A stretch of DNA of 29,423 nucleotides, from contig JANQMT010000149.1 in assembly GCA_028279945.1 (NCBI GenBank), positions 1 to 29,423 of the forward strand, written 5' to 3'. This document shows, piece after piece, positions 5,444-29,423 of the stretch. Position 1 is the first letter of the stretch. Every line of letters begins with the position of its first letter. The stretch comes from Clostridia bacterium (GTDB lineage: Bacteria; Bacillota; Clostridia; Peptostreptococcales; JAAYPU01). The notes beneath the pieces were generated by a model, which worked only from the letters and a program-made list of their open reading frames with translations, made no database searches and had not been told where the DNA came from. The position numbers and the translations under genes were made by a program.

Positions 5444-7745
<2,302 letters not shown>

Positions 7746-7763
<18 letters not shown>

Positions 7764-8243: not shown

Positions 8244-8332
8244 CAACATTCCGCCTAAATCTTAGGAGAGTTTTTAAAAAGTTCATAGGACAGTAATGGT
8301 AATATTTATATAGATTTGAAAGGGTGATTTTA

Positions 8333-9439
8333 ATGAAAATTATTGTGAAAAAAGATGAAAGAGGGCTTCTTTTTAAAGATGGCAATTATATGATGTGTTT
8401 AAAGGCCGGAAAACATAGGTTAAATCCTTTTGGAAAATATAGTATCCAACTGGTTGATGTGAATGAGTCTTTTGATACAATGGGTAAGAACATCAATATC
8501 TTTTTAGACGATGAAGAACTTTTAAAAGAGTTAACTGTAATAGATGTTAAGGATAATGAACTGGCACTCCACTTTGAGGATGGGAAATATATTGATGTTT
8601 TAAAATCAGTAAAAGGTGCTTACTGGAATGTACTCAAAAAACATGATTTTCTAGTTATTGATTTAAAGGATACGAAAGTGAAAGACGATATAGATGCTTC
8701 AATTTTAAGTAATCCAAAGGTGTGTGAATATTTAAACTGCTTCAATGTTGAAAGTCATGAAAAAGGTCTATTGTATTATGATAATGTGATACAAAAAGTA
8801 TTAGATCCTGGAAAATACTTTTTCTGGAAAGGACCTACCGATGTTACCGTTAAAACTGTAGATATGAGACAGCAACAAATTGGGATGGCTGGGCAGGAAC
8901 TGATGACGGAAGATAAAATTACGCTTCGATTGAATTTTGTATGTCATTATAAAGTTACAGATCCTTTGAAAGTAGTTGAAATTAATTCCTTTCATGAACA
9001 ATTGTACATAATTTTACAGTTAATCTTGAGAGAATACATTGGATGCGTTAAGCTAGATGTTCTTTTAGCAAAGAAACAAAATATAGGAAGTTATGTTCTT
9101 GAAAGATTAAAAGAAAAGAATAGTGAATTTGGAGTAGAGTTTATTTATGCGGGGTTAAAAGATATCATATTGCCAGGTGACATAAAAGAAATTTTAAACA
9201 CCGTATTAATAGCAGAAAAGAGAGCACAAGCTAACGTTATTACAAGAAGAGAAGAAGTTGCCTCAACAAGAAGTTTGTTAAACACGGCAAAGCTAATGGA
9301 TGAAAATCAAACCTTGTATAAATTAAAAGAGCTGGAGTTTCTAGAGAAAATATGTGAAAATGTAGGAAATATTTCTATAGCAGGAGGCGGCAACTTGTTG
9401 GAACAATTAAATGATTTGCTTTCAACTAGAAAAAGCTAA
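8333..9439 (+). CDS. SPFH/band-7 (stomatin/prohibitin/flotillin/HflKC) domain protein, cytoplasmic, with an internal ~150-aa insertion
   Basis: RBS AGGGTGA 5 nt before ATG 8333. N-terminus IVKKDERGLLFKDG...QLVDV. C-terminal core LRLNFVCHYKVTDPLKVV...AGLKDIILPGDIKEILNTVLIAEKRAQANVI matches SPFH. There is no N-terminal TM segment. Confidence 0.6.
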   Translation: MKIIVKKDERGLLFKDGNYMMCLKAGKHRLNPFGKYSIQLVDVNESFDTMGKNINIFLDDEELLKELTVIDVKDNELALHFEDGKYIDVLKSVKGAYWNVLKKHDFLVIDLKDTKVKDDIDASILSNPKVCEYLNCFNVESHEKGLLYYDNVIQKVLDPGKYFFWKGPTDVTVKTVDMRQQQIGMAGQELMTEDKITLRLNFVCHYKVTDPLKVVEINSFHEQLYIILQLILREYIGCVKLDVLLAKKQNIGSYVLERLKEKNSEFGVEFIYAGLKDIILPGDIKEILNTVLIAEKRAQANVITRREEVASTRSLLNTAKLMDENQTLYKLKELEFLEKICENVGNISIAGGGNLLEQLNDLLSTRKS

Positions 9440-9961: not shown

Positions 9962-10708
9962 TTAAAAGCCACTAATGTCTTGTGCAAGTCCGATGACCAT
10001 CATTTCTGATACACATCCGCCTTTTGTCAATGCGCATGCCTGATAAACCATATCTGCGAAGTGTTCAGGACGAACTGCCATTTCCTCATCCCATTCAAAC
10101 TTACTGATGCCTTCGGCAGATTGGAAGTTAGTATTTGAGCCACCTGGTACAAGTAAGGTGACACTTATGCCATGAGGTCTAAGCTCTGTATATAGGCATT
10201 TTGTGAAAGCATTTACTGCTGCCTTTGCAGCCGAGTATACCGACCAGCCGGGCCATGAACGGCGGTCGCAAACACTGGAGACGTTAAGTATTTTACCGTA
10301 GCCTTGTGCTTTAAACTGTGGAGCAAAGGTTCTACAGCTCATGATGGTGCTTGTTAAGTTTAAATCAATGATCTTTTTGTTCATTTCATCGTCCATTTCT
10401 TCAATGGGAGCAACTCTTACTGCTCCTCCAGCATAGTTGAGTAGAAAATCAACCTTTCCAAAGTTGTCTATGCATGCCTTTAGAGCTGCTTCAAAGGTTT
10501 CGGGCTTTGTAGCATCGCCTTTGAAAGCAATAACCTTTGAACCATGTGCTTCGCAGTTCTTGACTGTGTCTGCCAATGCCTCTTCATTAATATCAAACAG
10601 CACCAGATTACATTGATCCAGCTTTGCAAACAACTCAGCGGTTGCTTTTGAAAAGCCTGAAGCAGCTCCCGATAAAACAGCAACCTTCCCTTTAAAAGAT
10701 TCACCCAT
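9962..10708 (-). CDS. SDR-family NAD(P)-dependent oxidoreductase
   Basis: N-terminus KGKVAVLSGAASGFSK (Rossmann fold), YxxxK present. RBS AAGGAGGG. Confidence 0.85.
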   Translation of the reverse strand: MGESFKGKVAVLSGAASGFSKATAELFAKLDQCNLVLFDINEEALADTVKNCEAHGSKVIAFKGDATKPETFEAALKACIDNFGKVDFLLNYAGGAVRVAPIEEMDDEMNKKIIDLNLTSTIMSCRTFAPQFKAQGYGKILNVSSVCDRRSWPGWSVYSAAKAAVNAFTKCLYTELRPHGISVTLLVPGGSNTNFQSAEGISKFEWDEEMAVRPEHFADMVYQACALTKGGCVSEMMVIGLAQDISGF

Positions 10709-10837
10709 GAATAACCCTCCTTACCAATTATAGTAAATAATTGATCTTTTGAGATTATACTAACATATTCCATGACAAAGGTCAACAGCTCGTTTTTTAT
10801 CTTTGACATTTTTTATGAAAAAGTTCAATTGTTGAGA

Positions 10838-10866
10838 TTGACAAATGTCATAAATTAATTTAGAAT
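10838..10866 (+). promoter_or_regulatory. Promoter (-35 TTGACA, 17 bp, -10 TAGAAT) overlapped by palindrome TGACAAATGTCA (10839-10850)
   Basis: Perfect 12-bp palindrome, one of three copies in the window. A degenerate second half-site TTGACATTTT lies at about 10802. Confidence 0.55.
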
Positions 10867-10916
10867 TTAATTGAACAAATGTTTTGAAAAATGTTAATGA
10901 AGGCGAGGTCGGTGAT

Positions 10917-11699
10917 ATGTTAGTTAATTTGAATGGTAAGGTCTGTGTTGTTACAGGTGCAGCTAGAAGTATAGGTCTGGGTATTGCAGAGAAGTATTGC
11001 GAAGACGGAGCTAAGGTAGCAATGATCGACATTAATCCTGAGGTTGTATATGAGGCGGATAGAATTTCTAATGAATATAAGGCAGATGTAAAAGGCTATG
11101 TATTAAATATTACTAATAGAGAAGAGGTACTCAAATGTTTTGATAAGATTGTTGAAGAGCTTGGTCCTATATTTGCCTTGGTTAACAATGCAGGAATTGT
11201 AGATCAACGTTCCTTTGAGGAAATCACCGAAGATATGATTAACAAACAGATGGCAGTAAATGTGAATGGAACGCTTTTCTGTACCCAAGGTGCAGTAAAA
11301 AGTATGAAGGATCAGAACGAAGGCAGAATTATAAATTTTTCATCCAAATCAGGTAAAACAGGGTCAGCCCTAATGGCCCATTATTCTGCAGCAAAGGGAG
11401 CAATTATTGCCCTTACACATGCCCTTGCATTTGAATTGGCTTCCGATAATATTCAAGTGAATTGCATCTGCCCCGGTATAACTGATGCTACGGGTGTTTG
11501 GAATCAAGTAAGTTCAGGATATACAAAAAACCTAAACTTGTCTCGAGAAGAGGTCATAAAGCAATTTACAGCAAAAATTCCAATGAAGAGACTAACAAAT
11601 ATTGAAGATATTGTTGAGATGGTTTACTTCCTTACTCTAAAGGGAGATTATATGACCGGTCAAGCATATAACATTACAGGAGGAAGGGAGGTGCACTAA
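10917..11699 (+). CDS. SDR oxidoreductase, sorbitol-6-phosphate 2-dehydrogenase (SrlD)-like
   Basis: GKVCVVTGAARSIGLG, GRIINFSSKSGKTGS...YSAAK and C-terminal TGQAYNITGG resemble SrlD. Probable start is ATG 10917 rather than TTG 10884. Confidence 0.8.
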   Translation: MLVNLNGKVCVVTGAARSIGLGIAEKYCEDGAKVAMIDINPEVVYEADRISNEYKADVKGYVLNITNREEVLKCFDKIVEELGPIFALVNNAGIVDQRSFEEITEDMINKQMAVNVNGTLFCTQGAVKSMKDQNEGRIINFSSKSGKTGSALMAHYSAAKGAIIALTHALAFELASDNIQVNCICPGITDATGVWNQVSSGYTKNLNLSREEVIKQFTAKIPMKRLTNIEDIVEMVYFLTLKGDYMTGQAYNITGGREVH

Positions 11700-12746
11700 A
11701 TGAGTCATATGATAGGGAAGTGTGTGAAATATTATGCCCCAATGGATGTTCGAATTGAGCCGTTGATGGAAATACCTCAGATTTGTGATGGAGAAGTTTT
11801 GATAAAAATCGAAGCCTGTGCCATCTGTGGAACGGATATAAAATCCTTTGTCAATGGCAATCCCAGAATCATGCCTCCAAAGGTAATGGGGCATGAGCTT
11901 TGTGGAAAGATTGTGGCAATGGGCAGTGGCGTTGATAACTATAAAATAGGTCAGAGGGTAACGATGGCTACTACCATAGGCTGCGGCAAATGCGACTACT
12001 GCAAAAGTGGAAAGACAAATCTTTGTAGAAGTGCAGAGGCAATGGGCTTTCATTACCCCGGGGCGATGGCACCTTATGTGGTTATACCGGAAAAGGCGGT
12101 AAGACAAAAACATTTGGTGGATGTGGGAGATCTGGATGTCGTTATTGCAAGTCTAAGCGAGCCCCTATCCTGTGCTATGAATAATATAAGTCGTGTACCA
12201 GATGAAGCACTGGGAAGTGTACTTGTTATTGGCCTTGGGCCACTTGGAATGCTGCATGCTGTTTCCTTAAGGGAAAAAGGAGTCAAAAACATAGTGTGCG
12301 TAGCAAGACCGGGTAAAAGAGCGGATATGGCAAAGCAATTGGGCTTTGATATAGTGCTTTCGCCTCATGAGATAGATGAAAAATATAAGGAGCTTACAAA
12401 TGGCGAAGGATTTGATTTGATTATCATAACAGCTCCCAGCAACGAGATGCAAGGGAAGGTACCAATGTATGCTAAGAAAGGAGGGTACGTATCCTATTTT
12501 GCCAGTCTCCCTGTTGGAGATGAAATGCTGACAATGAACAGTAGGATTATCCATTATAATGAATTGGTGCTTTACGGTACTTCGGATTCTACAGTACAGC
12601 ACGTGAAAGCAGCAGTTCACCTTTTAAGAAAAAATCCGGAAGCCTTCAAGCCTTTGATTACACACGTTATGCCATTTGAAGATTTTCATAAAGCTATGGA
12701 TGAGATAAAGTTGAGAAATGCCGTTAAAATAGTACTTGTTCCATGA
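11700..12746 (+). CDS. Zn-dependent medium-chain alcohol/polyol(-phosphate) dehydrogenase
   Basis: CAICGTDIK, GHE, CGKCDYCKSG structural-zinc motif, GLGPLG NAD site. The start abuts the upstream stop. Confidence 0.85.
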   Translation: MSHMIGKCVKYYAPMDVRIEPLMEIPQICDGEVLIKIEACAICGTDIKSFVNGNPRIMPPKVMGHELCGKIVAMGSGVDNYKIGQRVTMATTIGCGKCDYCKSGKTNLCRSAEAMGFHYPGAMAPYVVIPEKAVRQKHLVDVGDLDVVIASLSEPLSCAMNNISRVPDEALGSVLVIGLGPLGMLHAVSLREKGVKNIVCVARPGKRADMAKQLGFDIVLSPHEIDEKYKELTNGEGFDLIIITAPSNEMQGKVPMYAKKGGYVSYFASLPVGDEMLTMNSRIIHYNELVLYGTSDSTVQHVKAAVHLLRKNPEAFKPLITHVMPFEDFHKAMDEIKLRNAVKIVLVP

Positions 12747-12941
12747 TACTATGGGTAGTGTAAAGTAAACTATAAATTACTGGCGACTGACGCCACCTTT
12801 GACAGTATAGAAAAACAATGCTCTGTAGTTTTTACCGATAGCGAAGAACTCAAGAACAGGTAGAGAAATCGACTTCAGACTATAGCACTTTAACATTGTT
12901 TTTCTGTACCATCAAGAGTAAATACGAGGGGGAATAAGTAA

Positions 12942-14003
12942 ATGAAACTTGTAGGTATAGGTGATTTGTTCATACCAAAGGAATACATTGAGAAGGGCTT
13001 TCAATCCTATTGGGAAATGAATGTTGAGGTTGAAACCGTTGAATGGATGCTTGCAGATTTTAATGAGCTTCAAAAAATTAATTTAATGGTGGAAAAAGGA
13101 GGCTGTGAGGCTTATGAGCCGCCTCAATATATTTTCGATGCCTGTGAGGATGCAGATATTATTATCACCCAGTTTTGCACCATTACAAAAAAATTGATGG
13201 ATCATTGCAAACACCTAAAGATCATCGGCGTTTTAAGAGCAGGTATAGAAAATGTTAATCTTGCATATGCAAGTGAGAAAAATATACTCGTCTACCATAC
13301 ACCGGGGAGAAATGCAGATGCAGTTGCTGATTTTACGATAGGTTTATTGCTTTCAGAATGCAGAAATATTGCCAGAGGCCATATGGGATTGAAAAATGGA
13401 AAATGGATTAGAGAATATCCCAATTCCTTTTATATTCCGGATCTTCCAGGGAAAACGGTGGGTATCGTAGGCCTTGGAGAGATAGGTCAAAAGGTTGCCA
13501 AGCGGCTTGTTGGCTTTGATGTAAAGCTATTGGGCTATGATCCCTATGTTTCAAATCCTCTCTATGGAATAAAGATGTGTTCTCTTGAAGAACTGATGGC
13601 AAAATCGGATTTTGTTACTGTTCACGTCAGACATACATCGGATACCGAGAATCTGATAAATCGAAAGTTAATCTCTAGAATGAAACCTACCGCCTATCTT
13701 ATCAATACTTCACGATCGGTCATAGTTGATGAAGATGCTCTTTTTGAAGCTTTAAGAGACAAAAAAATAGCAGGTGCCGGCTTAGATGTATTTAATGTTG
13801 AGCCGCCCACCAAAGATTATCCCATTGTTGCAATTGATAATGCAACCGTGACACCTCATATGGCAGGGGGCTCCAAGGATGCGTTTTTGAATTCACCTAA
13901 GAAGCTGGCGGAAGGGCTAAAGGGTTATTGGAGCAAAGATGAGTCAAGGTATCTGGTAAACAAGGGCTTGCTTGGAAAAATGACGGCTACAACGAAAAGA
14001 TAA
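12942..14003 (+). CDS. D-isomer-specific 2-hydroxyacid dehydrogenase family protein
   Basis: GIVGLGEIGQKVAKRL NAD-binding motif and a catalytic His region. RBS GAGGGGGA. Confidence 0.8.
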   Translation: MKLVGIGDLFIPKEYIEKGFQSYWEMNVEVETVEWMLADFNELQKINLMVEKGGCEAYEPPQYIFDACEDADIIITQFCTITKKLMDHCKHLKIIGVLRAGIENVNLAYASEKNILVYHTPGRNADAVADFTIGLLLSECRNIARGHMGLKNGKWIREYPNSFYIPDLPGKTVGIVGLGEIGQKVAKRLVGFDVKLLGYDPYVSNPLYGIKMCSLEELMAKSDFVTVHVRHTSDTENLINRKLISRMKPTAYLINTSRSVIVDEDALFEALRDKKIAGAGLDVFNVEPPTKDYPIVAIDNATVTPHMAGGSKDAFLNSPKKLAEGLKGYWSKDESRYLVNKGLLGKMTATTKR

Positions 14004-14019
14004 TTGGAGGTAAGGGGCT

Positions 14020-14316
14020 ATGTATGCAGCAAAAATTATAGGTACAGTAGTATGTACCCGAAAGGATGAAAAATTAAGTGGCAGGACGTTACAGGTGGTA
14101 CAGCCCGTTAGTCTCTTGACACTGGAATATGAAGGTAAACCTTCTGTAGCCATTGATTCCGTCGGGGCAGGAATGAATGAAATCGTTCTGGTTGTAGGAG
14201 GAAGTTCTGCAAGGCAGACAACAGTTACATCCAATACACCTGTGGATGCCACAATCATGGCCATTGTAGACCTGATTGATATAGATGGCCAAAAGGTATT
14301 CGATAAAGGTCAATAA
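14020..14316 (+). CDS. BMC vertex (pentamer, BMC-P) protein, EutN/PduN/CcmL family, copy 1
   Basis: MYAAKIIGTVVCTRKDEKL start is typical of EutN/CcmL. RBS GGAGGTAAGGGG. Confidence 0.85.
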   Translation: MYAAKIIGTVVCTRKDEKLSGRTLQVVQPVSLLTLEYEGKPSVAIDSVGAGMNEIVLVVGGSSARQTTVTSNTPVDATIMAIVDLIDIDGQKVFDKGQ

Positions 14317-14333
14317 TCTAAATTGTAGGGGGA

Positions 14334-14609
14334 ATGTCCATGTTTCTAGCTAAAATTATTGGAACAGTTGTTGCAACCCAAAAGGATGAATCATTGAGAA
14401 GTGTAAAGCTGCTGGTAATACAGCCCATTGATTCCTTTGGAAAAGAAGCAGGTTCTCCTGAGGTAGCTGTGGACACCATTGGCGCAGGCTATGGAGAAAT
14501 CGTATTTTGTGCAAAAAGCAAGGAAGGGGCTATGCCCTTACCTGACCCTAATGCGCCGGTGGATGCAGGAATTATTGGAATTGTTGATTGCATCTATAAT
14601 AATCGTTAA
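14334..14609 (+). CDS. BMC-P vertex protein, copy 2
   Basis: LAKIIGTVVATQKDESL, paralog of the previous gene. Confidence 0.85.
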   Translation: MSMFLAKIIGTVVATQKDESLRSVKLLVIQPIDSFGKEAGSPEVAVDTIGAGYGEIVFCAKSKEGAMPLPDPNAPVDAGIIGIVDCIYNNR

Positions 14610-14622
14610 AGGATGATTTGCC

Positions 14623-14919
14623 ATGATATTTGCTCGAGTAGTTGGAAATATGGTTGCAACCCAAAAAAATGAAAATCTGAGAGGTTCAAAATTAATGATT
14701 CTTCAACCTTTGGACACAAAAGGGAAAAGTGTCGGAAAACAGATCATAGCAGTGGACGCAGTAGGAGCGGGAATAGGAGATATAGTCATCGCCATTGCTG
14801 AAGGGGGTTCGGCAAGGCAGGTGTATAAGGCAAAACCCATGGCACCCATTGATACAATTATTGCGGGGATTGTTGACATCATTGAGACAGAAGATGGAAG
14901 CATAAGCTTATATGATTAA
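14623..14919 (+). CDS. BMC-P vertex protein, copy 3
   Basis: IFARVVGNMVATQKNENLRGSKL, a third tandem paralog. Confidence 0.85.
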   Translation: MIFARVVGNMVATQKNENLRGSKLMILQPLDTKGKSVGKQIIAVDAVGAGIGDIVIAIAEGGSARQVYKAKPMAPIDTIIAGIVDIIETEDGSISLYD

Positions 14920-14933
14920 AATGAGGTGAAAAA

Positions 14934-15794
14934 ATGGAAATGAATAAGTTGATTGAGGCCATTACCCAAGAGGTATTAAAAGAACTGGGTGAAGACGACC
15001 TTTTTAAAGTCGGCGGTATCTCCATCTCAAAGGAGGTGCTACCCAACGGTGTTGATATAAACAATCTGGCGAAGACAGTAGACCACACTGTTTTAAAGCC
15101 AGACACGACTAGGAACACTATAGAAAAATTTTGCAAAGAAGCAGCGGAATGGAGGTTTGCATCCGTCTGTGTGAATCCAACCCATGTAAAGCTGGCTGCA
15201 AGCCTTTTAAAGGAGACTGATGTAAAGGTATGCACCGTAATAGGTTTTCCTTTGGGAGCTAACACACCCTTTGTGAAAGCAATGGAAGCAAGGGATGCAA
15301 TAGCCAATGGTGCACAGGAGGTTGATATGGTGATTAACATAGGCGCCTTGAAGGATGGTGAATATGATCTTGTTTCAAAGGACATAAAGGCTGTCGTGGA
15401 TGCAGCGGCCGGTCAGGCGCTGGTAAAAGTGATTATCGAGACCTGCCTGTTGACAGAGCAAGAGAAGATAAAAGCCAGTTTATTGGCTAAAAATGCAGGA
15501 GCAGATTTTGTAAAGACTTCTACCGGAATGAGCACCGGAGGTGCTACGGTGGAAGATATCGCTCTTATGAGAAAAACAGTAGGCCCCCAAATGGGTGTTA
15601 AAGCTTCCACAGGAGTAAATAATCGTGAAATCGCACTGAACCTGATAAGAGCAGGAGCGACAAGGCTGGGTACTAGCAAGGGTATCATCATTCAAACCGG
15701 ACAAAGCCCTGAACAACCAAGCTGTGTAAACTGCGGCAACTGCAAATCAGGCTGTCCTACAGGAAATGCACATGTTGTGAAAGACAACTATTAA
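14934..15794 (+). CDS. deoC: Deoxyribose-phosphate aldolase (DERA) with N-terminal amphipathic helix and C-terminal CxxCxxCxxxCP tail
   Basis: [10 protein letters not shown] and MGVKASTG (the two catalytic Lys regions), TVIGFPLG. N-terminal [15 protein letters not shown]-terminal [12 protein letters not shown]. Confidence 0.85.
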
Positions 15795-15798
15795 AATA

Positions 15799-17292
15799 AT
15801 GTCAGCTGAAATAGGGGATGTGAATAATATGGTTGTCAATGAAATTGATCCGGTGAAAAGGTCCGTAAGAGAAGCCAATAAACTGATGGATGAAGCTTAT
15901 GAAGCTCAGAAACTGATAGCTGACTATGACCAGCAGAGAATCGATAGAATTGTTGCGGCAATGGTCCATGCAGGCTATGAGAATGTAAGGAAATTGGCTT
16001 ATATGGCCGTTGAGGAATCCAAAATAGGTGTTGCAGAAGACAAGGTGATTAAAAATGTGTTTGCAACAAAAAATATTTATGAATATATCAAGGATATGAA
16101 AACTGCTGAAATCATTAGTGAGGACAGAGAACAAGGGATAATAGAGATTGCAGCTCCTATGGGTGTCGTAGTAGGATTGATTCCCACTACTAATCCTACC
16201 TCAACCGTAATGTATAAGGCAATCATATCAATAAAATCAAGAAATGCCATCGTTTTATCCCCTCATCCAAGATCGGTGAGATGCTGTATGGAAGCTGCAA
16301 GGATTATGGAAGAGGCTGCTATTGCAGCCGGAGCGCCAAAGGGAATCATCAGATGCATGTCCATATGCTCTAAGGATGCAACCGACACACTGATGCACCA
16401 TCCAAAGGCAGCGGTCATATTGGCTACAGGCGGTAGTGCTATGGTTAAGGCAGCATACAGCTCAGGTACACCAGCATATGGAGTGGGACCGGGAAATGTT
16501 CCGGCTTTTATAGAACGGTCTGCAAATATATCTGATGCCGTCAGCAAAATATTTAAAAGCAAAACCTTCGATAATGGTACCATCTGTGCTTCGGAGCAGG
16601 CTATCGTAACAGAGGCTGTTATTGCTGAAAAAGTAAAGGCTGAGGTAATAAAAAGAGGCGGATATTTTGTTGTTGGTTCAGACATGGAAGCTCTGGACAA
16701 AACCATCATACTTCAAGATGGAGGGGTTAATCCGAAGGTAGTAGGTCAATCCCCCACAGCCATAGCTAAATTGGCAGGGATTGAAATACCTGAGGGAACA
16801 AAAATTATCTGTGTAGAGCTAAAGGGAGTAGGAAAGAAATACCCTCTTTCGGCAGAAAAGCTTTGTCCTGTATTGGCGTTCTATGTTATAGACGATTGGG
16901 AAGCTGGCTGTGAGCGGTGCATTGAACTGCTGAATTATGGTGGTCTAGGGCATACTATGGTGATACATTCACACAACGATGCAATCATAAGGGAGTTTGG
17001 ACTGAAGAAACCGGTTTTTAGAATCTTGGTAAATACGCCTTCCTCTCAAGGGGCTATAGGATATACCACCGGTCTCGCACCGGCTCTGACCCTAGGCTGC
17101 GGCACATGGGGAGGCAGTATCACCTCAGACAATGTTTCGCCCTTGCACTTGATAAACAGAAAGCGGATCGCATATCATCAACCTGCAAGTGAAGAGAAGG
17201 CAAAGTCTAAAGGTACTAGATATGTATATACATTGACTGAAATAAATAAGGCTATAGATAATTATAATAAAGGAGGCTATTGGAATGAGTGA
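15799..17292 (+). CDS. CoA-acylating aldehyde dehydrogenase (PduP/EutE family)
   Basis: [10 protein letters not shown] catalytic Cys, [23 protein letters not shown]. The alternative start ATG 15829 is possible. Confidence 0.85.
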
Positions 17293-17596
17293 AACAATAG
17301 GCATGATAGAAACAAAAGGCTTGGTAGGAGCAATAGAAGCTGCCGATGCAATGGTAAAAGCGGCAAATGTTCAATTGATGGGAAAGGAAATCGTGGGCGG
17401 TGGATTTGTAATGGTAATCGTAAAAGGAGATGTGGGAGCAGTTAAGGCTGCCACAGATGCAGGTGCTGAAGCAGCCGGAAGAGTAGGCGAACTGAAGTCC
17501 GTTCATGTGATACCACGCCCGCATAATGAGGTTGCAGTGATACTTCCCAAATACGAGACTGTTAAGGCCGGACCAAAAACAAAAGCAACGACTTAA
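17285..17596 (+). CDS. BMC hexamer shell protein (BMC-H, PduA/EutM family), copy 1
   Basis: [25 protein letters not shown]...GDVGAVKAA...HVIPRPH. Confidence 0.9.
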
Positions 17597-17637
17597 TATG
17601 GATAGCCACGTAGTTGAAAGATAGGAGGTAAAATATA

Positions 17638-17907
17638 ATGAGTGAAGCAATTGGAATGATTGAAACCAAAGGCTTGGTTGGAGCCATAGAGGCAGCAGAT
17701 ACTATGGTTAAGGCTGCCGGTGTCAAACTAATAGGTAAGGAATGTGTTGGAAGTGCTTTGGTAACGGTTATGGTAAGAGGAGACGTAGGAGCGGTTAAAG
17801 CTGCTACCGATGCAGGTGCAGCAGCGGTACAAAGCGTTGGAGAGTTGAAATCCGTTCATGTGATTCCAAGGCCTCATGCTGAGGTAGAATCCATATTACC
17901 AAAGTAG
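17638..17907 (+). CDS. BMC-H shell protein, copy 2
   Basis: Same signature. RBS GGAGG. Confidence 0.9.
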
Positions 17908-17944
17908 TATTATGTTTGAATAGATGAATTAGGAGGGTTTTAAT

Positions 17945-18217
17945 ATGGAAAATGCATTGGGAATGATAGAGACAATCGGTGAGGTAGGAGCCATAGAAGC
18001 AGCAGACGCTATGGTAAAGGCTGCTAATGTAAAGCTTATGGGCAAAGAGAAGATAGGCAGCGGCTATGTAACAGTAATGGTAAGAGGTGATGTGGGTGCC
18101 GTTAAGGCTGCAACAGAAGCCGGTGCGGCAGCTGCGCAAAGAGTTGGGGAGCTGAAATCCGTTCATGTGATTCCAAGACCTCATAAGGATGTAGAGAGCA
18201 TATTACCTGAAAAATAA
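17945..18217 (+). CDS. BMC-H shell protein, copy 3
   Basis: Same signature. RBS GGAGGG. Confidence 0.9.
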
Positions 18218-18251
18218 GGTACGGACCAGAGAAATAATAGGCGGTGGGTAA

Positions 18252-19121
18252 ATGATGGAATTGGAATTGATAAAAAAGATCATAATGGCGGTATTGTCAA
18301 ATATAAATACCTACTCCTTTGAAAGCTATATGGAAAAGCCTATTTCAATAGGCGTTTCAAACAGACATCTGCACCTTTCGAAAGAGCACCTGGAAACACT
18401 ATTTGGATTTGGATATCGGTTAAAGAACCATAAAGAACTGTCTCAACCGGGACAATATGCCTGTGCAGAGACAGTCATACTGGTTGGACCCAAGGGCAGT
18501 ATTGAACAGGTAAGAATATTAGGGCCTGCGAGATCCCAGACTCAGGTGGAGGTTTTGAAAAGTGACTGTTTTCATCTTGGTGTGAATGCACCTGTCCGGG
18601 AGTCGGGAAAGCTAAGAGAATCAGGCGGTATCACCATCGTTGGACCTAAGGGAACGGTGCAGCTGAACGAAGGTGTAATCGTTGCACAACGTCACATTCA
18701 TATGACTGCCAAGGATGCCGCTGTCTATGGTGTTGTGGATGGGCAGTGCGTAAGGCTGAAGGTGGGCAAAGAAAGAGGTTTGGTTTTTGATAATGTCATT
18801 GTGAGAGTAAGCGATAGCTTTGCCCTAGAATATCATATGGACATGGATGAAGCCAATGCTTCAGGTATTCAGACAGGGGATCAGGCATTTTTACTGACTC
18901 CGCTGTGTGAAAATCTGCCGGTTGATAAACCGGCGTATAGCTTTATTGGAGACAATCTGGAACAAAGTGAAGAAAAGGAACCCTTGAGGCTTGTTACGGA
19001 TGAAACCGTTAGGGAGGCTTGGAAAAAAAGAGAAAAACTTAAAATAAGCAGTACAACTATTATTACACCCCTTGCAAGGGACACCATAAAGGAGCTCAAA
19101 GTGGAAATGTTGGGCTCTTAA
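18252..19121 (+). CDS. pduL: Phosphotransacylase PduL/EutD type, with N- and C-terminal extensions
   Basis: GVSNRHLHLS and VIVAQRHIHMT double motif. Extra N-terminal LELIKKIIMAVLSNI helix and a ~75-aa C-terminal tail. Confidence 0.8.
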   Translation: MMELELIKKIIMAVLSNINTYSFESYMEKPISIGVSNRHLHLSKEHLETLFGFGYRLKNHKELSQPGQYACAETVILVGPKGSIEQVRILGPARSQTQVEVLKSDCFHLGVNAPVRESGKLRESGGITIVGPKGTVQLNEGVIVAQRHIHMTAKDAAVYGVVDGQCVRLKVGKERGLVFDNVIVRVSDSFALEYHMDMDEANASGIQTGDQAFLLTPLCENLPVDKPAYSFIGDNLEQSEEKEPLRLVTDETVREAWKKREKLKISSTTIITPLARDTIKELKVEMLGS

Positions 19122-19166
19122 ATATAACCTGAGATTTCCAATAATAAACACTGTGAGGTGAGCGAA

Positions 19167-19454
19167 TTGGCAAAAGTCATCACTCTAAAGGATATTATAA
19201 AGTATAGTGGTTTAAAAACCATAGAGCTGCCGGTTGATACTTTACTGACGCCTTCCGCAAAGGATTGGGCACATGAAAACGGGGTGCAGATTGTATTAGA
19301 TCAGGGAGATGAAAAAGCAGAACTACTTCAAAGAACCATTCAAACAACTTTGGACAATATTAATAAGTCGGGGAACTTGATTACAAGAAATGAATTGGTT
19401 AGAATAGTTACAACAAGCCTTGAAAGAATGGGTTGTGTTATAGAGAATATTTAG
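19167..19454 (+). CDS. Small hypothetical protein (95 aa, TTG start) sharing a TLLTPSAKD-type motif with the PduL tail
   Basis: SD GAGGTG 6 nt before TTG 19167. The track's GTG 19158 has no SD. Confidence 0.4.
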   Translation: MAKVITLKDIIKYSGLKTIELPVDTLLTPSAKDWAHENGVQIVLDQGDEKAELLQRTIQTTLDNINKSGNLITRNELVRIVTTSLERMGCVIENI

Positions 19455-19467
19455 GGGAGAGGTTGCT

Positions 19468-20946
19468 ATGAGTAAATACTTGCTAAGTGTAGACAATGGT
19501 CTTACAACGACAAAGGCAGTGATTTTTACACTTGAGGGCAAGGAAGTTGCATCCAGCCATGTGAATACATTGATCGAAAACAATGGTGATTTTGCCGAAA
19601 TTGATATGGAGCTGCAGTGGGCAAACACTGCAAAGGTCATTAAGAAATGTATATCAAAGTCAGAGGTAGATTCCCGAGAGATTGTTGGAGTTGGCAACAG
19701 TGGACATGGTGCAGGGCTATACTGCCTTGATGAAAGCAATCGCCCTGTTAGAAAAGCCATATCCTCTATGGATGCAAGAGCCAGCAGCATTATAGAAAAT
19801 TGGACCAAGAATGGTTTGAATCCATACAGCAGGATATATCAAAGCTTTTGGAGTGGGCAGGCCATACCTTTGTTGAGTTGGTTGAAAAACAATGAGCCCG
19901 AAAACTATGGAAATATTAGAAGCATCCTTATGGTAAAGGATTGGATCATATACTGTCTTACCGGTAGTGTAGGGATAGAATATACAGATGCCAGCAATTC
20001 CGGATTGATCAATCCTGTGGATAAGAAAGTGGATAAAGAATTGTTTGGAATGTTTGAAGTGGAAGAAGTTTATGAAAAAATTCCCAAACTTCGTAAAACA
20101 ACCGATATCGCAGGTTATGTAACAAAAAGGGCTGAAGAAGAAACCGGTCTAATGGTTGGTACGCCTGTAATAGGTGGGGTATTTGATTGTATTGCTTGCG
20201 CACTTGGCAGCGGTGTCTATGACAAGGATAAATATAGCATCATTGCAGGAACATGGAATATAAACTCAGGAATAGAGAATGCACTAATCAGTCCCCATGA
20301 CACAGTAAAATGCTCGCTTTTTATTGATATAAACAAGTATTTCTACACTGAATCCAGTGCTACCTCAGCAGTAAATCTAAGCTGGTTTATTGATCATGTT
20401 ATTGGAGGCTTCAACATCTCAAACACATCGGATGCGTGTATATATAAAGAAATTGAGGAAAGGATTAAAGAAATCGATCCAAGGTCTTCCGATATCATTT
20501 ATATGCCCTTTCTTTATAAATCCCATCTAGCTAATATGCAGGGAGCTTTTTTTGGGCTAAGACCTGAATACAATATCTTTCATATGATTAGAGGCATATA
20601 TGAAGGCGTTGCATTTGCGCATAAAATGCATATTGATAATCTAAAAAACTCCGGCATAACACGAAAAAGTGCAGTACTGTCAGGGGGAGCGTCAAAAAGT
20701 CCTCTGTGGAGTCAAATGTTTGCAGATGTTTTGAATATTGAAGTGGCTACGGCAGATGCTACTGAGGTTGGGGCTTTAGGCTGTGCTGTATGTACCTCTG
20801 TAGCTTTGGGGATTCATAAGAGCATCAAAGAAGCTATTGCTGTAATGGTGAAAGAAAAGAAGCATTTTTATCCGGAAAGCATAAATGAAGACATCTATGA
20901 TATGAAGTATCATTTATTTAAAGATATCATTCGAAAATTCATTTAA
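19468..20946 (+). CDS. FGGY-family carbohydrate kinase (xylulokinase/ribulokinase-like)
   Basis: N-terminal LSVDNGLTTTKAVIF, two actin-like ATPase halves, C-terminal GGASKSPLWSQMFADVL. RBS AGGGGAGAGG. Confidence 0.85.
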   Translation: MSKYLLSVDNGLTTTKAVIFTLEGKEVASSHVNTLIENNGDFAEIDMELQWANTAKVIKKCISKSEVDSREIVGVGNSGHGAGLYCLDESNRPVRKAISSMDARASSIIENWTKNGLNPYSRIYQSFWSGQAIPLLSWLKNNEPENYGNIRSILMVKDWIIYCLTGSVGIEYTDASNSGLINPVDKKVDKELFGMFEVEEVYEKIPKLRKTTDIAGYVTKRAEEETGLMVGTPVIGGVFDCIACALGSGVYDKDKYSIIAGTWNINSGIENALISPHDTVKCSLFIDINKYFYTESSATSAVNLSWFIDHVIGGFNISNTSDACIYKEIEERIKEIDPRSSDIIYMPFLYKSHLANMQGAFFGLRPEYNIFHMIRGIYEGVAFAHKMHIDNLKNSGITRKSAVLSGGASKSPLWSQMFADVLNIEVATADATEVGALGCAVCTSVALGIHKSIKEAIAVMVKEKKHFYPESINEDIYDMKYHLFKDIIRKFI

Positions 20947-20991
20947 TAAAGTGATTAGTTTTCTCAGAGACGATGAAAAGGAGGAATTTTC

Positions 20992-21753
20992 ATGGATTTA
21001 AACCTGAGAGGAAAGGTTGCTATCGTTACTGGCGGGAGCAGCGGGCTTGGAGAAGCCATTTGCGACATCCTATCGATGGAGGGCTGCAACGTAGTGGTCA
21101 ATTATATTGTCGATGAAGCCGGTGCCTTTCGATTTGTTGATCGATTGAATGACAAGAGCGATGCAAAAGCAATACCCCTATATGGTGATATTACAAAGGC
21201 ACATGATATTGAGAACACTATTGCCAGAACCATTGACATATACGGGAAAGTAGATATATTGGTCAATAATGCAGGCGTATGGCCTACCGAATGGGTTGAA
21301 AGCATGAGCGATGAGGAATGGGAGAAGACTTTAAAGATTAACCTGACAGGCCCTTTTATGTTCAGTAAGAGAGTCGTACAGCATCTTATTGGAAGGAAAA
21401 GTCCGGGAAAAATCATAAACATTGTTTCTCAGGCTGCCTTTCATGGGTCTACCAGTGGCCATGCACACTATGCAGCAGCAAAGGGAGGGCTGGTTACCTT
21501 CACGGTATCTCTGGCAAGAGAGGTGGCAAAGCATAAGATAAATGTTGTAGGCGTAGCCCCTGGCATGATGAGGACGCCTATGAACAAGAAAGAGTTGGAA
21601 GAAAGAGAAGGAGAATATATTAAGAGGATACCTTTGGGTCGGATATCTGATCCTAAGGAAGTTGCCTATACGGTTGCTTTTCTTGCTTCTGACAAGGCAG
21701 ATTATATCACCGGTGCAACGATAGATGTTACAGGTGGAATGCTCATGAGATGA
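20992..21753 (+). CDS. SDR-family oxidoreductase (FabG-like)
   Basis: GKVAIVTGGSSGLG, NNAG, YAAAK. RBS AAAGGAGG. Confidence 0.85.
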   Translation: MDLNLRGKVAIVTGGSSGLGEAICDILSMEGCNVVVNYIVDEAGAFRFVDRLNDKSDAKAIPLYGDITKAHDIENTIARTIDIYGKVDILVNNAGVWPTEWVESMSDEEWEKTLKINLTGPFMFSKRVVQHLIGRKSPGKIINIVSQAAFHGSTSGHAHYAAAKGGLVTFTVSLAREVAKHKINVVGVAPGMMRTPMNKKELEEREGEYIKRIPLGRISDPKEVAYTVAFLASDKADYITGATIDVTGGMLMR

Positions 21754-21773
21754 TTCATTTTACTTCAAGAGAT

Positions 21774-21802
21774 TTGACAAATGTCATGAGATTATTTATA
21801 AA
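21774..21802 (+). promoter_or_regulatory. Promoter (-35 TTGACA, 17 bp, -10 TATAAA) overlapped by palindrome TGACAAATGTCA (21775-21786)
   Basis: Second copy of the 12-bp palindrome, upstream of the regulator gene. Confidence 0.5.
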
Positions 21803-21920
21803 ATTTAGAATTTCGTTGAAATATTTTTATATATATGGTATTAATATTACTATAATCTTGTAATTGGCTAATAATTTTGATATTTCAAGAAATAAAATGT
21901 TATGATAAGAGGAATCGAAT

Positions 21921-22883
21921 ATGGACGCAAAATTTGATATTTCACTTATGGTTAAGGTTGCACAAATGTACTATATGGATGAAATGAAGCAGGAAAAAAT
22001 TGCAAAGGAGCTTCAGATTTCCAGGTCGCTTATTTCAATGATTTTGACAGAGGCTAAGGACGTAGGTATCGTCCAAATTACAATCAAAAATCCTCAACTC
22101 AATAATGATGAGCTTTCCAGAGAGTTTGAAAGTAAGTTCAACCTCAAAAAATGCATTATTGTGCCCACGGCTGTTCAGGATCCTAATACACTGAGAAAGC
22201 TGGTGGCACAGAGAGCTGTAGATGTATTTAATCAAGAAATAAAAGAATCATCTAATGTTGGTATTTCATGGGGTAGAACCTGCTATGAGTTTATAAACCA
22301 ATTTGTAAGTGAATCAGTTTATAAGAATGTTTCTGTTGTACCATTAATAGGAGGAAGCAACCAGACGGCACATTATTTTCAATCCAATGAAATGGTACGG
22401 CGTTTTGCTGAGAAGCTTGGGGCAACCCCTCATTTTATCTATGCACCCAGCTTGAATTCATCCATTGAAGAAAAACTGCTTTTTAAAAAAAGCTCAAATA
22501 TGCAGGTGATACTGGAGAAGTGGGCTGATATGGATATCATTGTGGCGGCTGTTGGGACACTTCCTGATTTTAATTCCCATGAGCGTGAAACTTATATCGG
22601 AGAATCGGAGATATTTAGAATCCTTGAAAAAAGCGAAGCTGTGGGGGATATTTGTGCAAGGTATTTTGATAGGGATGGTCAATTTATCGAGGACAAATAC
22701 TTTGAAAGAATTCTTGGAATATCCCTTGATGAAATTAGAAGAGCGCATACAACCATTGGGTTTGCTATAGGATTAGAAAAGGTAAATGCCATACTTGGAG
22801 CATTGAAAGCCAATATTTTCAACATTTTTATTACTGATGAACAAACAGCAAAAAATGTATTGAAGGCTGAAATACAAAAATAG
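21921..22883 (+). CDS. SorC/DeoR-family sugar-phosphate-responsive transcriptional regulator (Bacillus DeoR-like)
   Basis: N-terminal HTH VKVAQMYYMDEMKQEKIAKELQISRSLISMIL, sugar-binding domain motifs GISWGRT, VVPLIGG, GDICARYFD. Clearly alignable to B. subtilis DeoR from memory. Confidence 0.85.
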   Translation: MDAKFDISLMVKVAQMYYMDEMKQEKIAKELQISRSLISMILTEAKDVGIVQITIKNPQLNNDELSREFESKFNLKKCIIVPTAVQDPNTLRKLVAQRAVDVFNQEIKESSNVGISWGRTCYEFINQFVSESVYKNVSVVPLIGGSNQTAHYFQSNEMVRRFAEKLGATPHFIYAPSLNSSIEEKLLFKKSSNMQVILEKWADMDIIVAAVGTLPDFNSHERETYIGESEIFRILEKSEAVGDICARYFDRDGQFIEDKYFERILGISLDEIRRAHTTIGFAIGLEKVNAILGALKANIFNIFITDEQTAKNVLKAEIQK

Positions 22884-22907
22884 ATCACATATTTTTTTGT
22901 AACACTT

Positions 22908-22946
22908 AAACACCTCAACAGCTTTATAAGAGGTGTTTTTTTGTTT
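22908..22946 (+). terminator. Rho-independent terminator (AAACACCTC-N13-GAGGTGTTT then TTTTTTGTTT)
   Basis: 9-bp perfect stem plus T-tract right after the regulator gene. Confidence 0.65.
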
Positions 22947-23062
22947 GGGAGGCATGTTGCCCAGCCCATGGCTTTATCTCAGAAAAGAGCCGTGACAAAA
23001 TTTATGAAATATTCCAAACATTATATTGACATATGTTATGGATTTAGTTATAATTAAGAAAA

Positions 23063-23091
23063 TTGACAAATGTCATGTAAAAATTTAATAA
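23063..23091 (+). promoter_or_regulatory. Promoter (-35 TTGACA, 17 bp, -10 TAATAA) overlapped by palindrome TGACAAATGTCA (23064-23075)
   Basis: Third palindrome copy. A degenerate copy TGACATATGTTA lies at 23023-23034, 41 bp upstream. Confidence 0.5.
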
Positions 23092-23103
23092 GGGGGACTA
23101 CTC

Positions 23104-24186: not shown

Positions 24187-24313
24187 TAACATACGGTGAA
24201 ACCCAGTGTAGTTGACACAAATTATCGGGAGGGACTTCATTAAGGAATTCCTCCCGATAGAATTATACAGCATCTACCGGTTGTCAAATAGCAAAGATGG
24301 GGGAGCGGAAGTC

Positions 24314-26816: not shown

Positions 26817-26829
26817 GGGGGTGGAAGAT

Positions 26830-27795: not shown

Positions 27796-27875
27796 GGCTC
27801 CGCAATAATTGGTTAATATATATTTTGTGAGAAAAATTGTATCAATAAGGGGGAATTATCATTTTAAAATTATCT

Positions 27876-28622
27876 TTGAATATAGAACCGGTACTTACCA
27901 ATATGGACTTTTATGACAGGATAAAGGTGGCCGCAGAGCTTGGATTCAGTGCAATTGAGTTTTGGGATTCAGAAATAAAGGATGTGAAAAAGCTTGGCAG
28001 AATTGCCAGTGAAAATAATGTTAAGGTAGCGATGTGTACCATAAACGGCATTTTTCAATATGTTCTTGACAATCCATATCCTGTACTGTTAAAGGCTGTC
28101 AATGAGACAATTGGTATGATGAAAGAAATGGATTGCAGCTCAATGATTATCTTTTCAGGCAATACGGAAAGCAAATCTGATTCACAAAAGAACATCATCA
28201 TTGAAAACCTAAAAAGACTTGCTGAAGTTGCAGAAAAGGAAAGCGTAACCATCAATATAGAGCCTTTAAATTCTATAGTAGAATGTAAGGGTCATTATCT
28301 CGATTCACAATATAAAGGATTTGAAATGATTAAATGTGTGAATAGCCCATTCATAAAAATGGTATATGACGTTTATCATATTCAGATTATGGAAGGAAAT
28401 ATCATAGATGCCATTCAGAAGAATATAGACTGCATCAGCCATTTCCATTCGGCGGGAGTACCTGGCAGAAACGAGCTCTTCTTAGGAGAAAACGACTATC
28501 CCAATATCATAAAAGCAGTGGAAAAAACAGGATATAACGGATATTTTGGTGTGGAATATTGGCCGGCTTATGAGGACCATATGAAGTCGCTGCAGGAAGT
28601 TCTTCAATATTTAAGATCATAA
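27876..28622 (+). CDS. Sugar-phosphate isomerase/epimerase (xylose-isomerase-like TIM barrel)
   Basis: AAELGFSAIEFW N-terminal motif and conserved His/Glu metal ligands. Start uncertain (TTG 27876 or ATG 27903). Confidence 0.7.
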   Translation: MNIEPVLTNMDFYDRIKVAAELGFSAIEFWDSEIKDVKKLGRIASENNVKVAMCTINGIFQYVLDNPYPVLLKAVNETIGMMKEMDCSSMIIFSGNTESKSDSQKNIIIENLKRLAEVAEKESVTINIEPLNSIVECKGHYLDSQYKGFEMIKCVNSPFIKMVYDVYHIQIMEGNIIDAIQKNIDCISHFHSAGVPGRNELFLGENDYPNIIKAVEKTGYNGYFGVEYWPAYEDHMKSLQEVLQYLRS

Positions 28623-28727: not shown

Positions 28728-29423
28728 ATGGATCAAAAGGATATCGATAAAATCGTTAAAGAGGTGATTCAAGAAACACTCAAACAACAACACCATCATA
28801 CTAGCAAAGGCGATGGTTCAACAAATATGTCCACAGCTTCAAAGCGGTTGGATTTTGATGTGCAACTAGCAGCAGTAATGGAGCATTCCATGATAAGACC
28901 GGATGCCACACCTGCAATGGTAAAACAGTTTTGTGAAGAGGCTGTAAAATACAAGTTTAGAAACGTTTCGTTGTCGCCTTGTTTTGTCTCTTTGGCAGCG
29001 GAGCTGCTGAAAGGAACCGGTGTTATGGTTTCCACAGCCGTTGGTTTTCCTATGGGGATAGCATCTATTGAAACCAAGGTTTTTGAAACCCATGAAGTAA
29101 TAAAAAATGGAGCTGCAGAAATTGATCTACCTATAAATGTGGGTATGGTCAAGGCAGGGAAACTAAGGGCTGTGAAGGAAGAAATTGAGGCAGTTGTAAA
29201 AGCCTCTGAGAAGAGGGCACTTATTAAAGCAGTTGTAGATCTGGGGCTGCTTACGGAAGAAGAGAAGATAAAAGTTGCTTTGATTGCCAAACTATCCGGT
29301 GCAGACTTCCTAAAGATAGCAACTACAACAAGACCGGTAGGCGTAAATGCCGAAGACATTAAGTTTTTTAGAAACATCGTGGGTTCGGACATGGGACTGA
29401 AAGCAGATGGAGGAATCAAGGAT
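28728..29423 (+). CDS. deoC: Second deoxyribose-phosphate aldolase paralog with ~35-aa N-terminal amphipathic extension (3' end beyond window)
   Basis: Absent from the ORF track because there is no stop before the window end. RBS GAAGGGA. AVGFPMG, GADFLKIATT, LKADGGI. N-terminal DIDKIVKEVIQETLKQ followed by an H/S/G-rich linker. Confidence 0.8.
   Translation, partial: MDQKDIDKIVKEVIQETLKQQHHHTSKGDGSTNMSTASKRLDFDVQLAAVMEHSMIRPDATPAMVKQFCEEAVKYKFRNVSLSPCFVSLAAELLKGTGVMVSTAVGFPMGIASIETKVFETHEVIKNGAAEIDLPINVGMVKAGKLRAVKEEIEAVVKASEKRALIKAVVDLGLLTEEEKIKVALIAKLSGADFLKIATTTRPVGVNAEDIKFFRNIVGSDMGLKADGGIKD

Follow-up and report, generated by a model that had tools for sequence, protein, structure and literature searches.

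Bacterial microcompartments (BMCs) built around deoxyribose-phosphate aldolase (DERA), the sugar-phosphate utilization (SPU) type, are among the most widespread BMC types and are barely characterized. To our knowledge, the only iron-sulfur (Fe-S) components discussed for BMCs are PduS, PduT, and glycyl-radical activases. Here, we describe a DERA encoded in a BMC locus of a Clostridia bacterium (assembly GCA_028279945.1, contig JANQMT010000149.1), the C-terminal tail of which contains four Cys residues in a ferredoxin-type arrangement. The whole stretch of DNA analyzed, 29,423 nucleotides in length, is referred to as the window; related loci and proteins are denoted by L and P numbers, respectively.

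In canonical two-cluster ferredoxins, each Cys motif gives three Cys residues to one cluster and the Cys of its Cys-Pro pair (CP-Cys) to the other. Designed peptides of 28 residues with one such motif, termed semidoxins, homodimerize and bind two [4Fe-4S] clusters, and the natural peptide PD1 of approximately 30 residues occurs at a 2:1 ratio of monomer (one cluster) to dimer (two coupled clusters), with a midpoint potential of −438 mV (PMC12648291; Jagilinki et al. 2025). The growth of cells dependent on designed semidoxins was more O2-sensitive than that of cells with the full-length versions (PMC12648291). As regards DERA itself, PMC8403123 reports, citing Schulte et al. 2018, that the C-terminal end of the Escherichia coli enzyme is disordered and alternates between two conformations, and that catalysis involves the terminal Tyr259, which, in the closed state, moves into the active site. 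An N-terminal extension resembling an encapsulation peptide (EP) is reported for all SPU DERAs (PMC11585597).

A conserved four-Cys motif in the C-terminal tail of DERA

The DERA gene in the window and the segments of its product, with structural features predicted by AlphaFold2 (AF2) and its per-residue confidence score (pLDDT), are as follows.

14934..15794, forward strand: DERA gene, 286 aa (open reading frame, ORF; matched by TIGR00126, PF01791, DERAs in the PDB, and Foldseek)
14940..14990, forward strand: EP-like amphipathic helix, aa 3–19 (AF2 helix; conserved in homologs)
14991-15065, forward strand: disordered linker, aa 20–44 (AF2 pLDDT <50 for aa 20–32)
15066..15701, forward strand: DERA TIM barrel, aa 45–256 (AF2 pLDDT >90)
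15324-15326, 15513-15515, and 15600-15602, forward strand: catalytic Asp131, Schiff-base Lys194, and Lys223 (invariant in the family alignment A1)
15702..15722, forward strand: polar Pro-rich linker QSPEQPS, aa 257–263, from the last barrel helix to Cys1 (variable; pLDDT ~55)
15723..15758, forward strand: ferredoxin-type motif C264-V-N-C267-G-N-C270-K-S-G-C274-P275 (invariant Cys, Gly, and Pro; tail profile)
15759..15779, forward strand: distal segment T-G-N-A-H-V-V, consensus [TS]-G-N-[AV]-x-[IV]-x (conserved in tails)
15780..15791, forward strand: tail tip K283-D-N-Y286 (terminal Tyr common to ordinary DERAs)
15792-15794, forward strand: stop codon

The four Cys residues, C264, C267, C270, and C274, are followed by P275, and the motif begins 23 residues before the stop codon. 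An earlier note made from the DNA letters had placed a CxxCxxCxxxCP motif at the C-terminus of DERA within 15700-15794, a range corresponding to aa 256–286 plus the stop codon, and the motif was borne out. It was the sole CxxCxxCxxxC across all six frames of the window, where, given a local Cys frequency of 1.6%, chance would produce approximately 4e-4 such motifs per 6312 aa. We then examined the best 120 homologs from a collection of 5.8 billion proteins, 119 of which retained the end of the barrel. The canonical motif was found in 61 of these 119 homologs and a different four-Cys arrangement in two, while 34 had a Cys-free tail with the terminal Tyr kept and 22 had a short tail without the terminal Tyr. 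The EP-like N-terminal helix was present in all 61 tail-bearing homologs.

Conservation was evaluated on 59 distinct tails from homologs 55–86% identical, which gave the consensus C-[VIT]-N-C-G-x-C-x3-C-P-[TS]-G-N-[AV]-x-[IV]-[VIT]-K-x-x-Y. The four Cys residues, the Gly following Cys2, and the Pro following Cys4 were invariant (59/59), and Gly13, Asn14, Lys19, and the terminal Tyr of the tail were at least 90% conserved. The distance from Cys1 to the C-terminus was exactly 23 residues in 51 of the 59 tails, and the linker before Cys1 varied in composition and length. Because it is conserved across homologs, the Cys motif is not a product of chance; moreover, both TGC and TGT were used at each Cys position across the 77 genomes described below, which, together with the invariant positions, argues for purifying selection rather than drift. 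The expectation that the Cys residues would be conserved in orthologs held wherever the tail was present. The earlier note would have taken orthologs lacking the tail as a refutation, and this applies in part: at least 34 homologs keep the Tyr without any Cys, and some of them come from loci that share the gene order of the window.

Three homologs deviated from the consensus. P0056 has four Cys residues in the non-ferredoxin spacing CxxCx6CxxxxC (LCNQCHKVQSACGSGTC), and in P0030, Cys4 is preceded by an additional residue (CKQPACP; CxxCxxCxxxxC). In P0029, all four Cys residues are gone, and the tail length and ..AGNVAVKSSY are retained; this persistence of the distal segment without the Cys residues suggests a separate role for it.

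By sequence, the product of 14934..15794 is unambiguously a true DERA, a class I aldolase. It matched TIGR00126 (deoC) across aa 45–253 with 285.9 bits (cutoff, 117.3) and PF01791 with 64.4 bits (cutoff, 23.8), and solved DERAs in the PDB were matched at E=1.6e-87, only across aa 44–260. A Foldseek search with the AF2 barrel returned 8qps, 5dbu, and 6d33 (E ~5e-29), with root mean square deviations of 0.8–1.2 Å over approximately 215 columns. Asp131, Lys194, and Lys223 were equated with D102, K167, and K201 of E. coli DERA by motif comparison with the literature (PMC11585597; PMC8403123), not by direct alignment. The AF2 model of the full protein consisted of the helix at aa 3–19, a disordered linker, and then the confident barrel. 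The amphipathic N-terminal extension, which is absent from ordinary DERAs, agrees in its helix with the EP described in PMC11585597.

Insertion of the Cys module before the terminal Tyr

Next, we compared the C-terminal ends of DERAs. Ordinary DERAs end in ...G-x4-S-[DN]-Y and BMC DERAs without the Cys module (hereafter, tail-less) in ...G-x(10-18)-K-x-x-Y; in the alignment, the Cys module appeared as 17–22 extra residues between the linker and the conserved K-x-x-Y tip. Y286 aligned with the terminal Tyr of ordinary DERAs (..SDY/..SNY), and this Tyr was present in at least 90% of the rows of A1. Judged from this alignment, the Cys module interrupts the native C-terminal tail rather than merely extending it. 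Because it is inserted before the terminal Tyr, at a fixed distance of 12 residues, the module is located on the one mobile element of DERA known to matter catalytically. Such a tail was not covered by any solved DERA structure among the PDB sequence and Foldseek matches. A C-terminal encapsulation peptide was also considered as an identity of the tail and was ruled out, since it is the N-terminus that bears the EP-like helix and the tail is non-helical and rich in Gly, Pro, and Cys.

Similarity of the motif to ferredoxins

A hidden Markov model (HMM) of the tail was compared with all PDB sequences. The 60 matches listed of 235 comprised only [4Fe-4S] ferredoxin-type repeats, such as those of the FwdF and MvhB polyferredoxins, 1clf and other clostridial ferredoxins, PsaC, and NuoI, and no Zn protein was among these 60. 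The best single-repeat E value was 6.5e-5, and the alignment ran beyond the Cys residues into CPTG..[AV]x[IV]. In a representative library of 1.84 billion proteins, the tail profile matched 3272 proteins with polyferredoxins on top; among the best 150 of these 3272, all were multi-motif polyferredoxins except for a 34-aa DERA tail fragment, and no single-motif tail on another enzyme was found, although library scores sum over repeats, so that single-motif matches rank low. The tail also fits the signature C-x2-C-x2-C-x3-C-[PEG] (a regular-expression form of PS00198), as did all 36 tails of alignment A3, and precomputed Fer4 matches existed for two relatives (P0081 and P0092). The conservation of Gly and Pro is typical of ferredoxin motifs rather than of Zn sites.

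Almost all listed profile matches in the PDB and in the representative library had at least two matched stretches, and the DERA tail has one; because of this single motif, the tail corresponds to half a ferredoxin. Approximately 30 aa with one motif extend from the end of the barrel to the C-terminus, and the semidoxin designs scored 21–23 bits against the tail HMM. No second lone motif able to pair with the tail was found in any frame of the window. The earlier note had described a canonical [4Fe-4S] site appended to an otherwise normal aldolase. The DERA body is confirmed and the site is conserved and ferredoxin-type at the sequence level; "canonical" overstates a single motif that amounts to half a ferredoxin, and "appended" does not describe a module inserted upstream of the terminal K-x-x-Y.

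The only other CxxCxxC within an ORF of the window, at 11982, resembles in sequence the structural Zn site of a Zn-dependent alcohol dehydrogenase (Zn-ADH; CGKCDYCKSGKTNLC). A substrate of a SCIFF/ranthipeptide-like maturase was also considered for the tail and rejected: the Cys spacing differs, no such NCBIfam match was obtained at E<=1, and no radical SAM gene is encoded in the window.

Distribution of the tail across genomes

To survey the tail, we searched 185,579 species, each represented by a single genome, with a degenerate DNA pattern of the motif. The scan yielded 78 matches, 77 of which were the C-terminal tail of a DERA, at 46–82% identity to the window DERA. The N-terminal helix was found in all 72 DERAs that were complete in the fetched piece (the other five were cut by the end of the piece), and the Cys tail is thus limited to DERAs with an EP-like helix. 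For 55 of the 77 loci, the fetched piece (<=8 kb) also included BMC-H genes.

The hosts belong to Clostridia (Oscillospiraceae/Faecousia, Christensenellaceae, and Eubacteriales and Bacillota metagenome-assembled genomes, MAGs). The named hosts, which are gut or anaerobic-digester Clostridia, were Christensenella hongkongensis HKU16, Faecousia intestinalis CLA-AA-H192, Anaerobacterium chartisolvens DSM 27016, and Candidatus Clostridium stratigraminis; the first three are cultured isolates by name, and the A. chartisolvens ortholog (P0013) is 82% identical to the window DERA. In the neighbor-joining tree of the barrel, tail-bearing proteins occurred in every major branch of EP-bearing DERAs (EP-DERAs), interleaved with tail-less proteins, a pattern that fits an old module with many losses.

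In each of eight MAGs, we noted two different DERA genes with the tail, located on separate contigs and differing in tail subtype (e.g., ..CIACGRCQTTCPTGNVTITKSQY and ..CVKCGACTATCPSGNVKITKNEY), namely the pairs L003/L010, L005/L051, L008/L035, L013/L028, L014/L026, L017/L059, L037/L078, and L045/L052. This suggests two DERA gene clusters per genome, both of which retain the module. The only non-DERA match among the 78 was located in an Eggerthella sp. MAG (L022, 3398-3457, reverse strand), in an open frame of 370 residues that contains at least two ferredoxin-type motifs (..CGKRCGKCHAGCP.. and ..CISCGKCSDVCPVGNV..) besides several hydrophobic stretches resembling membrane segments; with this one match among 78, the DNA pattern was otherwise specific to DERA tails.

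Genomic context of the tail-bearing DERA

The genes flanking the window DERA that are relevant to the BMC are as follows.

14020..14919, forward strand: three BMC-P (EutN/CcmL) shell vertex genes directly upstream of DERA (PF03319, E ~1e-27 each)
15799..17292, forward strand: aldehyde dehydrogenase (AldDH), starting 4 nt past the DERA stop codon (PF00171)
17285..19121, forward strand: three BMC-H shell genes and a PduL-type phosphotransacylase (PF00936, three times; PF06130)
28728..29423, forward strand: second DERA paralog, running off the end of the window (PF01791)

The gene order of the window is SDR, Zn-ADH, 2-hydroxyacid dehydrogenase, three BMC-P, DERA, AldDH, three BMC-H, and PduL, followed by a 98-aa ORF, an FGGY kinase, an SDR, a SorC-type regulator, an ABC sugar transporter, a xylose-isomerase-like protein, and the second DERA. 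AldDH is the predicted consumer of acetaldehyde from DERA. It has a second in-frame ATG at 15829 preceded by GGGGA (15814-15818), which makes its true start, and hence its N-terminal extension, uncertain.

The locus (9962-29423) therefore contains DERA, AldDH, PduL, three BMC-P, and three BMC-H, and lacks RpiB, BMC-T, and PduS; among the window ORFs scanned, no RpiB (PF02502), PduS, PduT, or other Fe-S gene was found. An RpiB-type isomerase is common to SPU subtypes according to PMC8217296, and PMC11585597 describes SPU5 as lacking RPI. RpiB was found in the related tail-bearing loci L080, L040, and L054. Because no RpiB was found, the window locus does not appear to be of the canonical SPU type (DERA plus RpiB), so that the earlier description of the protein as the signature aldolase of an SPU BMC stands for a DERA of a BMC locus and lacks support as to that type.

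The same note had linked the tail to electron transfer by PduS and PduT. Both proteins are absent from the window, and all four combinations of tail and PduS occur among the window and its relatives: both in L079 and L080, the tail without PduS in the window, PduS without the tail in L082 and L085, and neither in L081 and L084. PduS together with a PduT-like tandem BMC protein with a pore Cys (..PICPGKF..) was encoded in the tail-bearing loci L079 and L080 and in 17 of the 77 genome pieces. Since every combination exists, the tail is independent of PduS/PduT, and the idea of an electron conduit is without support from the gene neighborhood.

Whether the second DERA has a tail had been hidden by the end of the window, and its full-length form settles the matter. 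P0121 (269 aa), which is 100% identical over the part in the window, ends in ..GASRSVKILNPHGVRNGTQAEK, and it and its whole family (P0121–P0190) have no Cys tail and no terminal Tyr. The second DERA has an EP-like N-terminus of its own (MDQKDIDKIVKEVIQETLKQ) and keeps the Asp/Lys/Lys positions, with KIATTT for KTSTG and GAS for GTS. It may be an aldolase for a different substrate or a non-catalytic partner.

The 98-aa ORF (19158-19454, forward strand) matched no Pfam family and has homologs in L070, L080, and L081. It shares the motif (I/L)(I/L)TP(L/S/A)A(R/K)D..A.E.G(V/I) with the last ~25 residues of PduL (18252-19121, forward strand), and the same motif was present in small or unannotated ORFs of L080 (7645-7968) and L079 (14480-15160). 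Further upstream, and unrelated to the BMC locus, a WCX-domain ORF (6302-6766; PF25583) lies between two ORFs without a family (5462-6199 and 6753-7763, forward strand), and an SPFH/Band 7 protein is encoded at 8324-9439 (forward strand).

Proposed role of the Cys tail

We tentatively propose, with a probability of roughly 0.45, that the catalytic tail of the window DERA contains a half-ferredoxin knot that most likely binds a [4Fe-4S] cluster and tunes tail closure or assembly. A semidoxin-like metal-binding module of approximately 20 residues would sit between the barrel and the terminal Tyr of a microcompartment-targeted DERA, and its four invariant Cys residues would bind an oxygen-labile [4Fe-4S] cluster, in the simplest case one per tail as in monomeric PD1. 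The cluster would take no part in aldol chemistry; instead, it would draw the otherwise flexible 30 residues of the tail together into a compact knot, at a fixed distance of 12 residues from the terminal Tyr. The knot would then govern how easily the tail shuts on the active site, and perhaps also the packing of DERA with its neighbors or its oligomeric state, such that acetaldehyde output in the compartment would respond to anaerobiosis, redox state, or iron status. The module would be accessory and would have been lost many times. Cluster binding, its stoichiometry and nuclearity, and its effect on the tail and on activity are what we infer from the sequence.

Several observations weigh against this proposal. 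In the AF2 model of the full protein (87-sequence alignment), the tail had a pLDDT of 48–61 and no secondary structure, and a model of the 31-aa tail alone (36 sequences) likewise showed a pLDDT of 52 and no secondary structure, although low AF2 confidence would be expected for a fold that depends on a cofactor. Fer4_8, Fer4_7, Fer4_9, Fer4_10, Fer4_6, Fer4_2, Fer4, and Fer4_4 matched the window DERA with only 12–17 bits against gathering cutoffs of 21–27 (E ~0.007, below cutoff). Ligation of one cluster by all four Cys residues of a lone motif would be non-canonical, since the CP-Cys serves the other cluster in ferredoxins, and the DERA tail lacks the N-terminal β strand of semidoxins, in place of which it has the polar Pro-rich linker. 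A comparison of 131 tail-bearing with 31 tail-less EP-DERAs by nearest-neighbor contrasts gave no clean signal of barrel positions co-varying with the tail, the differences being confounded by phylogeny. Finally, the gene order of the window recurs in L081 and L084, the DERAs of which lack the insert, and tail-less BMC DERAs tolerate Cys-free tails of 15–23 residues; any regulatory benefit is thus dispensable, and the tail is accessory because loci of the same gene order have DERAs without it.

The half motif might also be completed by a second copy of itself. On this explanation, which we consider unlikely but the main rival, the tails of two neighboring DERA chains, either dimer partners or separate DERAs in the crowded lumen, would build an inter-subunit 2×[4Fe-4S] module in which each cluster is held by Cys1–Cys3 of one chain and the CP-Cys of its partner. 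This module would cross-link the chains in a metal-dependent manner, thereby controlling DERA oligomerization or condensation of the cargo core, and might also serve as a low-potential redox center. Such 3+1 ligation across halves is the canonical ferredoxin pattern, and Cys4 and its Pro are invariant here, while monocluster ferredoxins usually lose that Cys or make it part of a disulfide. A homodimeric proto-ferredoxin stage is postulated for the evolution of ferredoxins, and paired DERA tails would match it. The ~30 aa from barrel end to C-terminus equal one ferredoxin half in size, and with no other lone motif in the window, the partner must be another DERA. Designed semidoxins homodimerize with two coupled clusters and about one-third of natural PD1 is dimeric (PMC12648291), and PMC8403123 and PMC6244999 report that E. 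coli DERA crystallizes as a dimer and that other DERAs are tetramers. However, the tail is devoid of the first β strand of the β-α-β semidoxin fold, AF2 predicted no fold, pairing would tie up the tail bearing the catalytic Tyr, and tail-less orthologs build the same loci. More doubtful still is the elaborated scheme in which two paired tails would constitute an enzyme-embedded 2×[4Fe-4S] unit, the O2-labile assembly of which would gate the C-terminal Tyr and cross-link cargo, and would thereby switch acetaldehyde output and core packing by redox or iron.

Four closely spaced Cys residues can bind Zn as a structural knuckle or form reversible disulfides as a thiol redox switch, P0056 and P0030 keep four Cys residues in spacings off the ferredoxin motif, and every Fer4 score was sub-threshold; but such a module, which we regard as improbable, would leave unexplained the invariance of Gly and Pro and the ferredoxin-specific continuation CP[TS]G..[AV]x[IV], no Zn protein appeared among the listed PDB matches, and the hosts are anaerobes, in which Fe-S use is common. 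An electron-transfer or shell-docking module working with PduS/PduT within or across the shell appears quite improbable: the loci encoding PduS and the PduT-like protein with a tail-bearing DERA would be consistent with it, as would the ferredoxin-like potentials of semidoxin-type peptides, but the window lacks any such partner, tail and PduS are found in every combination, the DERA reaction has no redox step, and the module is on the catalytic tail and not on a surface-exposed terminus free of other roles. It is very improbable that the tail is a relic without current function, left over from an ancestral fusion to a ferredoxin-like gene and on its way to loss by drift. Frequent loss, the interleaving of tail-less proteins across the tree, and the working of same-gene-order loci without the tail would suit a relic, but, where the tail is present, six of its positions never vary and a further four are at least 90% conserved among proteins with only 46–60% overall identity, with both Cys codons in use, and the Cys residues were lost together when lost (P0029).

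Returning to the proposed half-ferredoxin knot, the combination of a DERA catalytic tail with a half-ferredoxin motif is a new and widespread architecture. The suggestion of a novel fusion agrees with the literature searched, in which no description was found: targeted searches (DERA/DeoC, iron-sulfur, microcompartment, Christensenella) returned no prior account of a DERA Fe-S tail, term searches of main-text sections of the BMC catalog papers and of the 2024 SPU characterization gave no Cys-rich or Fe-S C-terminal DERA tail, and the word "aldolase" is absent from the main text of the semidoxin paper (PMC12648291). A strictly conserved ferredoxin-type half-motif is carried by the signature aldolase in at least 77 species-level genomes, within the tail bearing the catalytic Tyr, and could tie enzyme activity or assembly to an oxygen-labile metal cluster. 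If a cluster is bound, the tail would provide a class I aldolase, the chemistry of which needs no metal, with a lid or assembly switch under cofactor control, and would represent a natural enzyme-embedded counterpart of the semidoxin stage, which is otherwise studied in designed peptides and one free-standing natural peptide. In that case, aerobic heterologous expression, as used for SPU enzymes, may give an apo form with altered behavior.

Comparison with known systems

Among Fe-S proteins, the DERA tail resembles the clostridial 2×[4Fe-4S] ferredoxins and polyferredoxins (Fer4 clan; PS00198) in the pattern C-[IV]-x-C-G-x-C-x3-C-P-x-G..[AV]-[IV]. In these proteins, two or more motifs are always present and exchange their fourth Cys, whereas the DERA tail has one and is sub-threshold in Pfam. 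With the semidoxins and protodoxin PD1, the tail shares a length of ~28–30 residues, a single CxxCxxCxxxCP motif, and occurrence in anaerobes. Semidoxins and PD1 are free-standing peptides with an N-terminal β strand (YxIxxxxC), a β-α-β fold, and a role as electron carriers; in contrast, the DERA module is fused to a 256-aa enzyme and is followed by the K-x-x-Y catalytic tip.

PduS and PduT are likewise Fe-S proteins encoded in BMC loci, some of which also have a tail-bearing DERA. However, PduS is a flavoprotein with a two-cluster Fer4 domain and PduT is a shell trimer with one pore Cys per chain, and both families are unrelated to the DERA tail. A functional analogy is offered by E. coli FNR and Bacillus subtilis Fnr, in which a terminal Cys segment (N-terminal and C-terminal, respectively) holds an O2-labile [4Fe-4S] cluster that controls conformation or oligomeric state. 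The analogy is functional only: these sensors are transcription factors with other Cys spacings and no sequence relationship to the DERA tail, for which sensing is putative.

Another known system is ordinary DERA, represented by E. coli DeoC with Tyr259 and by the short Firmicutes DERAs ending in ..S[DN]Y, which belongs to the same family and has the same terminal Tyr on a flexible tail. In ordinary DERA, approximately eight residues without Cys separate the last helix from this Tyr, whereas in the window DERA approximately 30 residues do so and contain the four-Cys ferredoxin-type motif.

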